DNA of 64,000 nucleotides from an uncultured Bacteroidales bacterium. Its GTDB lineage: Bacteria > Bacteroidota > Bacteroidia > Bacteroidales > TTA-H9. The notes below the pieces were generated by a model. The model did not search any database. It was not told the DNA's origin and saw only the letters and a list, made by a program, of their open reading frames with translations. Positions 16,481 through 61,504 of this stretch are shown in pieces. The DNA is taken from assembly GCA_964444785.1 (NCBI GenBank), contig CAYUII010000008.1:44776-108775 (forward strand), read 5' to 3'. A program made the translations under genes and the position numbers. Numbering within the stretch: position 1 is the stretch's first letter; each line of letters begins with the position of its first letter.

Positions 16481-16520
16481 TTTTATAGCTAAGGTTTTTC
16501 GTTTTATAGCTAAGGTTTTT
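16481..16520. repeat. two identical 19-bp direct repeats (TTTTATAGCTAAGGTTTTT) with a 21-bp period
   Basis: The copies lie at 16481-16499 and 16502-16520, immediately 5' of the 16524-16614 hairpin in the ugd / acyl-CoA synthetase divergent intergenic region. Confidence 0.85.
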
Positions 16521-16523
16521 TTT

Positions 16524-16614
16524 ACCTCTTCGCTTCCCCTTCGCTTCCTCTCCCTATTTGCCCGTTTAAACAGCGAGCAGAAGCGAAGAAGAAGCGAAGG
16601 GGAAGCGGGGAGGT
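16524..16614 (+). repeat. inverted-repeat element copy 1 (24-bp stem, 43-nt interior) built from 11-bp-phased CTTCGCT / AGCGAAG units
   Basis: ACCTCTTCGCTTCCCCTTCGCTTC (16524-16547) pairs with GAAGCGAAGGGGAAGCGGGGAGGT (16591-16614) as 22 Watson-Crick plus 2 T:G pairs. CTTCGCT lies at 16528 and 16539. AGCGAAG lies at 16582 and 16593, with AGCGGGG at 16604. Confidence 0.85.
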
Positions 16615-16837
16615 GATTGAAATGGCCAATGAAAGAGGCTATTAGAATGACTTTGATAGGTGAAAGGCAAATAATTACGATGAGATCTCAATCGATTAGA
16701 GATTTTTTTTTAATTTGCGCCGCTCATTTTGTGACATTTAACCAAGTGGTTAATATACCTTTATAGAGATCAACTTGATTTGTCTGCTCGACACTGATAT
16801 ATAAGCACGTAAAGAATAAATAACATAAAAGAAGCTG

Positions 16838-28699: not shown

Positions 28700-30964
28700 T
28701 TACTTGTCTTGTTTACCTATTAGATTCAAAGCGCTACCGGCTTTAAACCATTCTATCTGATTTTCATTATAGGTGTGATTTACAAGGAAACGATCTGTTG
28801 TTCCATTGGTGTGGTGTAGAACCATGGTTAAGGCTACTCCTGGTTTCATCTCCATTAAACCGAGGATATCAATGAGGTCGTCTTCTTTGATCTTATTGTA
28901 ATCGTCTTTATTAGCGAAGGTTAGAGCCAACATGCCTTGTTTTTTCAAATTGGTTTCGTGAATTCTGGCAAATGATCTTACTAAGACTACCTTAACGCCA
29001 AGAAATCTTGGCTCCATCGCAGCATGCTCACGAGAGCTTCCTTCGCCGTAATTCTCGTCTCCAACAATGAGGGTATCAAACCCATTTTGCTTGTAAATTC
29101 GAGCGCTTTCTGGAACCGGGAAATATTCCCCTTTAATCAGGTTCATGACAGCGTTTGTTTTCTGATTAAAGGCATTAGTAGCACCGATGAGGAGGTTGTT
29201 GGAGATGTTTTCAAGATGGCCTCTGTATCTTAACCAGGGACCAGCCATTGAGATATGGTCGGTTGTACATTTGCCGGCTGCTTTTATTAGTAGGCGTAAT
29301 CCTATGAGATCACCACCTGACCAGGGTTTGAAGGGTTCTAGAAGTTGCAGTCTTTCAGAAGCAGGGTCGACCATTACCTTGATTGCGGAGCCATCTTCTG
29401 CGGGGGCTTGGTAGCCTCTGTCTTCCACCTCGAATCCTTTTTGAGGAAGTTGTGGTCCGGTGGGTTCGGGCAATTTAACCTGTTCCCCATTCGCACCGGT
29501 TAGGGTATCGGTGATCGGGTTAAAGGTCAGGCTGCCTGCAATAGAGAAGGCGGTTACAATTTCGGGAGAGGCTACAAAGCCGTGAGTGTTGGGGTTGCCA
29601 TCGTTTCTTTTGGCGAAGTTTCTGTTAAAGGAGGTCATAATGCTATTAGGTTCTTGCTTTTCTGCACCATGCCTTGCCCATTGTCCGATGCATGGTCCGC
29701 AAGCATTAGCCAAAACCACCCCTCCAACTTTATCGAAGATCTCCAATAAGCCATCTCGTTCTACCGTATATCTTACTAACTCACTTCCAGGAGTTATGGT
29801 TAGTTCTGATTTTGCCTTTAATCCGACTTCAAGTGCGGCTTTTGCCACCGAGGCGGCACGACTGATATCCTCATAAGAGGAGTTGGTACATGAACCAATG
29901 AGTCCGGCGCTTAACACTGCTGGCCATTTGTTTTTCTTAACCTCTTCGGCAAATTTTGAGAGAGGGGTAGCTAAGTCAGGAGTAAATGGGCCATTGATGT
30001 GAGGTTCGAGCTCGGAGAGGTTAATCTCGATGAGTTGATCGAAATATTTCTCTGGATCTGCATAAACTTCATCGTCACCTGTGAGATGGATACTGATCTG
30101 ATTGGCTAGCTCGGCAACTTCGGCACGATTAGTTGTTTTCAGATATTCAGCCATACTGTTGTCATAGCCAAAGAGGGAGGTCGTAGCACCTATCTCAGCA
30201 CCCATGTTACAGATGGTTCCTTTTCCGGTAGCTGATAGTGATTTGGCTCCTTCACCAAAGTATTCTAGAATAGCGCCGGTTCCTCCTTTTACGGTTAAGA
30301 TACCAGCAACCTTGAGAATCACATCTTTTGCGGAAGTCCATCCGTTAAGTCGCCCGGTTAGCTTTACGCCGATAAGTTTGGGGAACTTAAGCTCCCAAGG
30401 CATTCCGGCCATAACATCTACCGCATCAGCTCCTCCAACCCCAATAGCGACCATTCCGAGTCCACCCGCATTGACAGTATGGCTATCTGTCCCGATCATC
30501 ATCCCACCAGGGAAAGCATAGTTCTCAAGTATAACCTGGTGAATAATCCCAGCACCCGGTTTCCAGAAACCGATACCATATTTATTAGATACTGAAGAGA
30601 GAAAGTCATAGACCTCTCGGTTGGTGTCGAAGGCCGTTTTTAAATCTTCTGAAGCCCCAACTTTAGCCTGAATAAGGTGGTCGCAGTGAACGGTTGAGGG
30701 AACAGCAACTCTTTTCTTTCCCGCACTCATAAATTGTAGTAGCGCCATCTGAGCTGTTGCATCTTGCATAGCTACTCTGTCGGGTCTGAAATCAACATAG
30801 TCTACTCCTTTTGCAAATGACTTTAATGGCATCTCAGGATCAAGATGTGCATAAAGGATTTTTTCTGTTAGAGTAAGAGGTTTCCCGGTTACTTCTCTAG
30901 CTTGTTTGATTTTTTCAGGTAAGCTCCGGTAAATATTCCGGATCATCTCAATATCGAAGATCAT
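28700..30964 (-). CDS. aconitate hydratase (about 750-aa, mitochondrial-type aconitase)
   Basis: The Fe-S ligand motifs IGTDSHT, GSCTNSS and [11 protein letters not shown] are present, with a swivel domain at the C-terminus. Confidence 0.92.
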
Positions 30965-31093
30965 ATGTGTTGTTTATTTGTTTCCTGACCAACTCCCGGC
31001 CAATCGGGTGACATTTAATGCTTAAAACAAATGAATGGCAAAGTTGTTTAGCTCCTCTTTTAAGAATAACCTGAATATCTCTTTTGTAGCATA

Positions 31094-31247
31094 CCTCTTC
31101 GCTCCCTCTCCATATCTTCTTCGCTTCTTCTCTATACTATTGTTAGAATGTAAATATGAAATCAATGAGTAACAACATGGCTTCATCTCTTTTCGAGGTC
31201 ATTTTTTCGTTCAAATAGGGACCATGTATGGAGAGGAAGCGAAGAGG
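31094..31247 (+). repeat. inverted-repeat element copy 2 (22-nt terminal arms enclosing 110 bp)
   Basis: CCTCTTCGCTCCCTCTCCATAT (31094-31115) faces GTATGGAGAGGAAGCGAAGAGG (31226-31247), giving 20 WC pairs, 1 T:G and 1 mismatch. CTTCGCT lies at 31097 and 31119 (22-bp spacing). Confidence 0.85.
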
Positions 31248-31250
31248 ATG

Positions 31251-31358
31251 GGTTTTTGGCGGCTAGCGGTTAGCTTCTGGCTTTTGGCGGCTAGCTTCTG
31301 GCCAGCTGCCAGCCGCCAGAAGCCAGAAGCCAGAAGCCAGTAGCCAGAAGCCAGAAGC
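31251..31358. repeat. about 100-nt GC-rich hairpin whose 3' arm is a (GCCAGAA)6 heptamer tandem repeat, directly 3' of the PKD-like lipoprotein gene
   Basis: nt 31273-31292 pair with 31311-31330 (20 bp, one T:G) around an 18-nt loop containing CAGCTG. Imperfect pairing extends to about 31251/31352. The six heptamer units span 31315-31356, with one GCCAGTA variant. TTTTGGCGGCTAGC is duplicated at 31254 and 31282. Confidence 0.85.
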
Positions 31359-31360
31359 TT

Positions 31361-31744
31361 TTACTTTCCCAGTGCTGGAATCTGAATAGTCTGGCTAGTG
31401 TAATTATCCTTCTTAGAGGCAGTGTCAGTAGCCTTCAGGTTTATGAGATAGGATGCGGGTTGAGAAAGCTTGGGGTAATAAAATGTGGGGTTGACCTCTT
31501 GGCTTTGACTGTTATTGTATCCAAATTTCCAGAGGTATTTTTGGGCTCTTAGACTTGTGTTGGTAAAGACCACTTTCACCTGATTATTCATGTTAATAGC
31601 TTGGTAAGAAAAACCCGCAATGGGGTCGAAAAGGGTCTCAAGATTTTTGTTCCCTTCATCTTTATCTTTAGAGCAGGAGAAAAAGGGAGAAATGAGCAGT
31701 AAAGCTAGGAGAAGAATAATTGGTTTTTGAATTAACTTATTCAT
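31361..31744 (-). CDS. small PKD-domain-like lipoprotein
   Basis: MNKLIQKPIILLLALLLISPFFSC is a lipobox signal. The body has a PKD-like pattern (VVFTNTSLRAQKYLWKFGYNNSQSQEVNPTFYY...YLINLKATD). The track start at 31834 is unlikely. Confidence 0.55.
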   Translation of the reverse strand: MNKLIQKPIILLLALLLISPFFSCSKDKDEGNKNLETLFDPIAGFSYQAINMNNQVKVVFTNTSLRAQKYLWKFGYNNSQSQEVNPTFYYPKLSQPASYLINLKATDTASKKDNYTSQTIQIPALGK

Positions 31745-31818
31745 GGATATTATAATTAGAAAGATAATGCGATATAGCCGCCGTTTCGGCAAAAATAGAT
31801 AAATTGGGAGAATAGCAT

Positions 31819-31826
31819 TACCTTTG
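31819..31826 (+). promoter_or_regulatory. candidate -7 promoter box for the uvrD/pcrA-like helicase gene
   Basis: TACCTTTG matches TAnnTTTG, 24 nt upstream of GTG 31850. Confidence 0.35.
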
Positions 31827-31849
31827 TTTAGCATATATTTATAGAGTAA

Positions 31850-48031: not shown

Positions 48032-48069
48032 AAAAAAGGGAGGTCTCAAAAATAAGACCTCCCTTTTTT
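48032..48069. terminator. bidirectional rho-independent terminator (purM / lipoprotein gene)
   Basis: The stem GGGAGGTCT / AGACCTCCC is flanked by A6 and T6 runs. Confidence 0.85.
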
Positions 48070-48099
48070 GATAGCTAAGGGTCTTCGCTTGTAAATAGC

Positions 48100-61148: not shown

Positions 61149-61212
61149 GGTGCTTTCTTCTTCTTTTGCAGCACAAAAGTAAAAAATCTGGACTAAAGTA
61201 GATTTTTGTTTG

Positions 61213-61470
61213 CTTGCTCTTCGCTTGCTCTCCCATTCCTCTCCATATAATGAACGGTTAAAGGTGGACTTAATAGGTTGAGATTAGGTGGTATACCTTG
61301 AGGGATAATGCAATTGCATTGATCAAAATTGGTTTTATAAAAACTTACGGAATGGTTGAGTTCCATTTTTTTGGTAACCCAAAGAGATCTTCTCTTCCTT
61401 GATTTAATCAGGATGTTTTTGTATTTATATAGAGAACGAGCGAAGGGCGAGCGAAGGGCGAGCGAAGAGG
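61213..61470 (+). repeat. inverted-repeat element copy 3 (imperfect about 35-nt arms enclosing about 175 bp)
   Basis: The left arm is CTTGCTCTTCGCTTGCTCTCCCATTCCTCTCCATATA. The right arm TATATAGAGAACGAGCGAAGGGCGAGCGAAGGGCGAGCGAAGAGG has AGCGAAG at 61439, 61450 and 61461, an exact 11-bp period. The interior holds a 14-bp perfect palindrome AATGCAATTGCATT (61307-61320) and a small hairpin plus T7 run (about 61349-61373). Confidence 0.8.
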
Positions 61471-61504
61471 TGAGGTTAGATTAGGAGGAAAAAGGATTTT
61501 TGAA

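Follow-up and report, generated by a model that had tools for sequence, protein, structure and literature searches.

A modular inverted repeat upstream of aconitase in an uncultured Bacteroidales bacterium

An inverted repeat between aconitase and its upstream gene

The 64-kb window, by which we mean the whole stretch of DNA analysed here, comes from an uncultured Bacteroidales bacterium and carries an aconitase open reading frame (ORF) on the minus strand at positions 28700–30964 (Pfam Aconitase, E = 1e-146). The ORF upstream of it, at 31361–31834 on the same strand, has no Pfam match. An inverted repeat occupies positions 31094–31247 in the space between these two genes, and its distance from the aconitase start is 130 nt, as given in a preliminary description of this DNA. 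Arms of 22 nt, read directly from the sequence, lie at 31094–31115 (CCTCTTCGCTCCCTCTCCATAT) and 31226–31247 (GTATGGAGAGGAAGCGAAGAGG) and enclose an interior of 110 nt, exactly where they had been placed. The left arm and the reverse complement of the right arm (CCTCTTCGCTTCCTCTCCATAC) mismatch at positions 11 and 22. Strict Watson–Crick pairing therefore accounts for 20 of the 22 positions, and the earlier figure of 21 of 22 is right only if a T:G wobble pair is counted. The stem is prolonged past a bulged A (A31093) by the pairing of CAT at 31090–31092 with ATG at 31248–31250.

The left side of the element is more elaborate than a single arm. A second CTTCGCT had been noticed 22 nt after the first, and is indeed present at position 31119, the first being at 31097; it is no isolated motif but part of a complete repeat of the 22-nt module (31116–31137). 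Two such modules in tandem make up the left arm, each composed of an 11-mer of type A followed by an 11-mer of type B. Module 1 (31094–31115) consists of the A unit CCTCTTCGCTC and the B unit CCTCTCCATAT, and module 2 of the A unit CTTCTTCGCTT and a B′ unit, CTTCTCTATAC. The right arm is one inverted A+B module, which gives the best match to a hidden Markov model (HMM) of the module (E = 0.0009), with module 1 matching at 31095–31115 (E = 0.002). Module 2 can also pair with the right arm (88% over 24 nt) and is thus an alternative partner for it; if module 2 is counted as arm, the A/T-rich interior shrinks to 88 nt (31138–31225). On the minus strand this interior begins with ATGGTCCCTATTTGAACGAAAAAAT, similar to the interior start of a related element on metagenome contig L217. 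A 20-codon ORF within it (31159–31221, MKSMSNNMASSLFEVIFSFK) is not conserved in the homologous L217 interior and is probably due to chance.

The inverted repeat upstream of aconitase is real and lies far beyond chance expectation. A scan of the window for inverted repeats with 22-nt arms, 20 or more matching positions and a spacer no longer than 300 nt returned only three places: the aconitase element, one further member of its family (copy 1, below) and a neighbouring hairpin of heptamers. The same scan found no such arms in 12 composition-preserving shuffles, and 100 shuffles gave an expectation of 0 matches for the 22-mer arm. Folding z-scores for the element are −3.8 (DNA, plus strand) and −5.5 (RNA, minus strand). 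Searches for promoter signals within 31094–31247 found neither a TTTG-N17-23-TAnnTTTG site nor a sigma-70-like site, and the number of terminator-like sites in 30900–31450 was 0.

The neighbouring heptamer palindrome is a separate structure at 31251–31359, in which GCTTCTG faces GCCAGAA (DNA fold z = −4.3), and it begins 1 nt past the stop codon of the hypothetical gene at 31361–31834. Its stop-proximal arm varies among strains that are 99% identical, with 2 to 5 extra units of the forms GCTTCTG, GCTACTG and GCTGCTG; the other arm is almost fixed.

Three palindromes in the window are built from 11-nt units

The aconitase element is the second of three palindromes of one family in the 64-kb window, located at 16524–16614 (copy 1), 31094–31247 (copy 2) and 61206–61476 (copy 3); the two further copies that had been reported earlier do exist. 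Two kinds of 11-nt unit, strung together, make up their arms. The A unit comprises a CTTCGCT core and four variable bases, and the B unit occurs as the variants CTCTCCATAT, CTCTCCCTAT and TTCTCTATAT. An A+B module usually forms the inner end of an arm, and ACCTC usually its outer end. Six significant matches to a profile of the 22-nt A+B module occur in the 64 kb, all at the inner arm ends of the three palindromes, with nothing comparable elsewhere in the window. All three palindromes fold far better than shuffled sequences.

Copy 1 has a pyrimidine-rich arm of A, A and B units (16524–16564) separated by only 9 nt from its purine-rich arm (16574–16614; DNA fold z = −5.9), and lies between divergent genes for UDP-glucose dehydrogenase and an AMP-binding enzyme. 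Copy 3, also between divergent genes, has its pyrimidine-rich arm (61206–61248) 58 nt upstream of the topoisomerase III start and its purine-rich arm (61428–61476), made of three A units and a B′ unit, about 78 nt upstream of the ClpB start. Interior length ranges from the 9 nt of copy 1 through 88 nt in copy 2 to 179 nt in copy 3.

Three further elements, on metagenome contigs L208, L217 and L220, bring the number examined to six. They have identical A and B unit types, ACCTC outer ends and the same polarity, and they sit beside unrelated genes (2-oxoacid:ferredoxin oxidoreductase, a universal stress protein and chorismate synthase/Rrf2). In all six elements, either strand reads from a pyrimidine-rich arm through an A/T-rich interior to a purine-rich arm. 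Two of the six lie between divergent genes, three between tandem genes and one between convergent genes, which is the distribution expected for intergenic regions generally.

Several smaller features were observed around these copies. Copy 1 is abutted by a 21-nt direct repeat, TTTTATAGCTAAGGTTTTTCG, present in 1.9 copies (window 16481–16520) and including the palindrome TAGCTA; a third, partial copy of this repeat (GATAGCTAAGGGTCTTCGCTT) is found at 48064–48090, after a terminator-like hairpin at 48037–48068. Copy 1 has at its right end GGAGGTGAT, a perfect Shine–Dalgarno complement, followed by a 7-codon ORF (window 16606–16646) that probably arose by chance. Short-read contigs of the source species begin or end in or beside members of the family: L251, L252 and L256 have starts of this kind, inside the right arm of copy 3 and inside copy 1. 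Such breaks are what multi-copy repeats would be expected to cause, and the repeats therefore fragment assemblies of this lineage.

Arms at different loci share ancestry

Whole arms of 38–44 nt recur at other loci, variable spacer bases included. Between the left arm of copy 2 and the right arm of L217, 35 of 38 positions are identical, with the unit order A-B-A-B′ of the 44-nt double module preserved; the left arm of L217 in turn agrees with the right arm of copy 3 at 37 of 39; and the left arm of copy 1 matches that of L208 at 30 of 33, although the low complexity of the units somewhat inflates the apparent similarity in such comparisons. Arm identity is higher between elements than between the two arms of one element, which points to descent from shared copies rather than to local inverted duplication.

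The interiors tell a similar story in one case. The copy 2 interior can be aligned with that of L217 over about 40 nt (z = 5.6; 0 of 200 shuffles), and copies 1–3 of the window resemble one another in their arms only. The proposed pattern of conserved ends around variable cargo holds in that the arm modules are conserved. It fails in that the arms are variable mosaics of the two units and some 40 nt of interior are common to copy 2 and L217; this shared stretch indicates a dispersed mosaic family in which the interior is not arbitrary cargo. Judged from these alignments, the arms are apparently inherited modules that recombine into mosaics. The broader proposal, that several copies of a non-coding inverted repeat with conserved arm modules are dispersed through intergenic DNA as one family, is borne out by the arm pairing, the module profile and the arms shared across elements.

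The element is present in eight assemblies of one species and absent from a sister species

Eight assemblies of the uncultured Bacteroidales bacterium, from different samples, carry an aconitase gene that is exactly or 99% identical to that of the window. All eight contain the element, in one orientation and with 0–1 substitutions. The single arm substitution among strains (L253 and L254) adds a mismatch and restores no pair. In a sister species (L004–L006; aconitase 94% identical), the orthologous site upstream of aconitase has neither the element nor the heptamer hairpin, and the region upstream of aconitase is therefore not the same in all relatives. What the sister species carries at this site is a pyrimidine array with a single arm, built of 8-nt units (GCTTCCCC) and terminating in CATAC as the arm in the window does; one strain has about 4 units and another about 11.

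The locus of copy 3 corresponds in the sister species to an unrelated 566-nt spacer with a 109-codon ORF, and no alignable empty site was found in the sister-species loci for copy 3 or L217. Intergenic DNA of the sister species is too diverged, which is why a clean empty site is lacking and movement has never been observed.

In the sister species a different palindrome, about 500 nt long and composed of several 11-mer arrays (CTCTTATATCT, ATCCTCTCAAT and TAGGGAGAGGA; L004 12480–13010, L006 12480–12779), lies downstream of aconitase, where the window has just 86 nt. The TAGGGAGAGGA units are of B type. The family thus occurs in both species, at different sites. This insertion is bordered by imperfect direct repeats of about 35 nt (GAGAACTATGTAAAGAATAGAGACATTG and ATAGAACTGCGTAAAGAGTAGAGACATTG), and sister-species assemblies are gapped or end at the palindrome.

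The near-invariance of the element among strains was also considered as a sign of constraint, given 1 difference in 154 nt versus the divergence of the adjacent 43-nt spacer (Fisher p = 0.002). We rejected this in favour of a recombination block boundary, because the upstream gene is equally near-identical (1/474) in the comparison with L253, in which aconitase differs at 70 of 2265 positions. The upstream gene and element together differ from L253 at 2 of 628 nt, and 63 of the 70 aconitase differences fall at third codon positions. The boundary lies at about 31050–31093, between the element and the aconitase leader, placing a breakpoint beside the palindrome.

The probable aconitase promoter region is retained without the element

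The 91 nt next to the aconitase start codon (30965–31055) are nearly identical in the sister species, which lacks the element, and this conserved block opens at the −7-box-like sequence CAACTTTG. The block remains near-identical though coding DNA of the sister species is about 15–20% diverged. It holds a possible hairpin (CCGATTGGCCGGGAGTTGG) and has no Rfam match. It probably represents a conserved promoter together with a regulated leader. Because the sister species keeps these promoter-proximal 91 nt without the element, the comparison indicates that the core aconitase promoter is probably independent of it. The preliminary description had proposed that the element could affect this promoter; an essential role is unlikely, given what the element-less species retains.

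CTTCGCT arrays occur more widely

In metagenomes, at least 120 contigs matched a pattern of three CTTCGCT units with an 11-nt period. Most are plain direct arrays in other Bacteroidales-like genomes, and few of the matches listed have an inverted partner. A scan of a genome collection with the 15-mer CTTCGCTYCCTCTCC returned only chance single matches in unrelated phyla, this pattern being too unspecific. An inner array end of the form CCTATA(G/T)TGTTC(T/C)TAT is common to the sister-species element (L004 12660) and contigs L236, L240, L189, L195 and L210, which derive from unrelated metagenomes, and this shared sequence hints at a wider family with a conserved centre. The existence of wider CTTCGCT arrays with a TATA-type terminal unit and sometimes a shared centre is suggestive, and is in part an artefact of the search design.

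In other Bacteroidales-like genomes (L146, L182, L203, L215, L222, L247 and others; contig BNJS01003939.1 and others), intergenic DNA holds mosaics that combine CCTTCGCT(Y)A(W)C arrays with two further pieces, a 40-nt module that recurs (CCTTCGTCACATACTCGGCTGCGCCAGCTCGCCGACTTTC) and a small hairpin (GTGCGAGCCGCACAGGCTTTT). These mosaics usually lie 55–110 nt upstream of a TAnnTTTG promoter box, and at least nine occur on one 2.7-Mb contig.

We regard as speculative, and rather improbable, the idea that CTTCGCT 11-bp arrays with a TATA-type end and the centre CCTATAGTGTTCTTAT form a Bacteroidales-wide system, serving either as a factor-binding platform or as the substrate of an undescribed, duplication-free mobilization. 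If it were true, the platform's DNA- or RNA-binding factor would organize promoter-upstream DNA, and the aconitase element would be one palindromic member of a Bacteroidales-wide system.

Alternative explanations

The palindromes might have formed in place, slippage expanding pyrimidine-rich repeats and template switching making the inverted partner, in which case the likeness among them would reflect a low-complexity vocabulary. The hypervariable unit number is consistent with such an origin, as are the one-armed arrays, the absence of target-site duplications and the several unit types and periods (7, 8 and 11 nt) found in one lineage, sometimes side by side. However, arms resemble those of other elements more closely than their own partner, copy 2 and L217 agree at 35 of 38 positions in the order and variants of four successive units (A-B-A-B′), and the interiors of these two elements align as well; all six elements, moreover, share one polarity and mostly an ACCTC outer end. 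We therefore consider formation in place possible but unlikely. The identity of spacer bases across loci, which indicates descent and not convergence, also bears on whether the A and B units could be host cis-regulatory arrays, that is, protein-binding sites one helical turn apart, with inverted arrays bracketing DNA upstream of core promoters as an activator, repressor or insulator platform. An 11-bp period, a conserved 7-nt core and variable 4-nt spacers are features that such sites could have, and arms end about 45–100 nt upstream of −7-box-like motifs at aconitase (CAACTTTG) and topoisomerase III (TACTTTTG). The metagenome arrays (at least 120 contigs with the 11-nt period, many 55–110 nt upstream of TAnnTTTG boxes) add to this argument, and a terminal unit ending in TATA is commoner after an array than before one (16 versus 3 of 111, p = 0.003). 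Conservation of the core is nevertheless ascertainment-biased because the metagenome search itself demanded core and period. The neighbouring genes have no common function, one element lies between convergent gene ends, and the aconitase leader is conserved without the element. In addition, the 8-nt period of the array at the sister-species site and the 7-nt period of the neighbouring hairpin show that 11-bp phasing is not essential. A regulatory origin has, in our estimate, a low probability, equal to that of formation in place, and these two are the chief competitors of the reading that we favour.

Comparison with a classical MITE, a deletion derivative of a DDE-type insertion sequence moved in trans via its terminal inverted repeats, is invited by the small size, terminal inverted repeats, non-coding content, intergenic position and several copies of these elements. 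The absence of a visible target-site duplication at the aconitase element, already reported, is confirmed, and direct reading of the flanks of copies 1–3, L208, L217 and L220 revealed none at any of the six; a TAGATT that occurs close to each end of copy 3 does not keep register with the repeat ends and was discarded as a candidate. The 64-kb window encodes no transposase, integrase or recombinase, and no matching insertion sequence end or transposase was found there or in plasmid, phage and viral collections, in which nothing similar to the elements was found. Arm length and unit order also vary. The earlier label 'MITE-like' is apt for the terminal inverted repeats and the dispersed non-coding copies, but not for target-site duplication or transposase, both lacking in the 64 kb; given also the want of a clean filled/empty allele, mobility is only putative and the elements are not canonical MITEs. 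The reading as a classical MITE is accordingly quite unlikely. We attach still less weight to a structured RNA acting as a terminator or insulator hairpin for the upstream gene, as a 5′ leader structure or as a small RNA, which we think very unlikely. The RNA hairpin is strong (z = −5.5) and lies downstream of one gene and upstream of the next, but there is no U-tract or terminator-like site, copies 1 and 3 lie between divergent genes where termination is not needed, the arm substitution among strains is non-compensatory and the 20-codon ORF of the interior is not conserved in L217. Rfam likewise gave no matches in related loci and 0 in the window at the gathering score, with only sub-threshold microRNA-hairpin noise at E ≤ 10. 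An invertible promoter switch (inverton), flipped by a site-specific recombinase acting on the arms, might be imagined from 22-nt arms around a segment of about 100 nt upstream of a gene and from arm sequences common to several loci, as in Bacteroides invertons. It is highly improbable: the eight assemblies agree in orientation, neither a TAnnTTTG nor a sigma-70-type promoter lies in the interior, the arms of copy 1 are just 9 nt apart and the window has no recombinase gene.

Comparison with known repeat elements

Several known systems resemble the aconitase family in build. BOX elements of Streptococcus pneumoniae consist of boxA, a variable number of boxB and boxC, with modules of 45–59 nt and the variable module internal. 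They share with the aconitase family a modular organization, partly complementary ends that produce a long hairpin, a dispersed intergenic distribution and the lack of a known transposase; their modules are long in comparison with the 11-nt units described here, and phylum and sequence are unrelated. Correia (NEMIS) elements of Neisseria measure about 100–155 bp; their inverted repeats are about 26 bp long, their interior is conserved and their target duplication is TA. Size, inverted repeats, frequent location beside promoters and hairpins in transcripts are points of likeness, whereas the conserved interior and the TA duplication are absent from the aconitase family. In Bacteroides invertons, short inverted repeats common to several loci surround a 100–200 bp segment upstream of genes. 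The aconitase family has comparable short inverted repeats common to loci and a comparable segment upstream of genes, but differs in having no inner promoter, one observed orientation, arms of tandem units and, in one case, an interior of 9 nt.

REPIN/BIME elements are doublets of REP sequences mobilized by RAYT transposases, and like the aconitase family they combine two inverted units with a spacer, cause no target-site duplication, form mosaic variants and persist within a lineage (PMC3116915, PMC3337134, PMC3733652). A REP unit, however, is an imperfect palindrome of 20–40 nt with a GTAG or CGTC tag; arms of the aconitase family are 85–95% pyrimidine on one strand, cannot self-pair and are untagged, with ACCTC or TCCTC outer ends beyond which bases are not conserved. 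No RAYT gene is present in the 64-kb window.

The BrickBuilt MITE of Porphyromonas gingivalis belongs to the same order. It has a moderate copy number, 19 in one genome, and consists of tandem 23-nt units flanked by unique leader and tail pieces, which bear small inverted repeats (Klein et al. 2015, PMC4596501). Both families are small, non-coding and strictly intergenic, with inverted-repeat ends and a variable number of tandem units. BrickBuilt has its 23-nt repeats in the interior, whereas in the aconitase family the 11-nt repeats are the arms and the interior is unique; the two are likened by build and not by sequence. Of the two, only BrickBuilt has shown promoter activity.

Searches of the literature by sequence and by topic found no description of the present repeats; a paper on dCas12f and sigma-E is unrelated to them. 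The family is a further form of a known kind of repeat element, and its unusual point is that 11-nt units build the arms and not the interior.

Discussion

We favour, with moderate confidence, the view that the aconitase element belongs to a family of small palindromic repeats that are modular, non-coding and restricted to one lineage, a view that draws on its demonstrated anatomy, dispersal over unrelated intergenic sites, cross-locus arm homology, change in unit number and turnover between species. Copies in such a family may arise by copy-and-paste or by gene conversion, without target-site duplication. Arms would then grow, shrink and reshuffle through slippage or unequal exchange, in steps of 11 and 22 nt. 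If the element is active at all, it could serve as a spacer that forms a hairpin or cruciform immediately upstream of core promoters. The aconitase promoter can presumably do without it, and the element may well be neutral for aconitase expression.

Small dispersed repeats are poorly charted in Bacteroidota beyond a few cultured species, and at present the family is a descriptive addition to the catalogue. Should its units prove to be protein-binding sites or substrates of a new route of mobilization, it would be of wider interest. For the genomes that carry them, family elements break short-read assemblies (three contigs here), mark fast intergenic turnover and adjoin the promoters of housekeeping genes.
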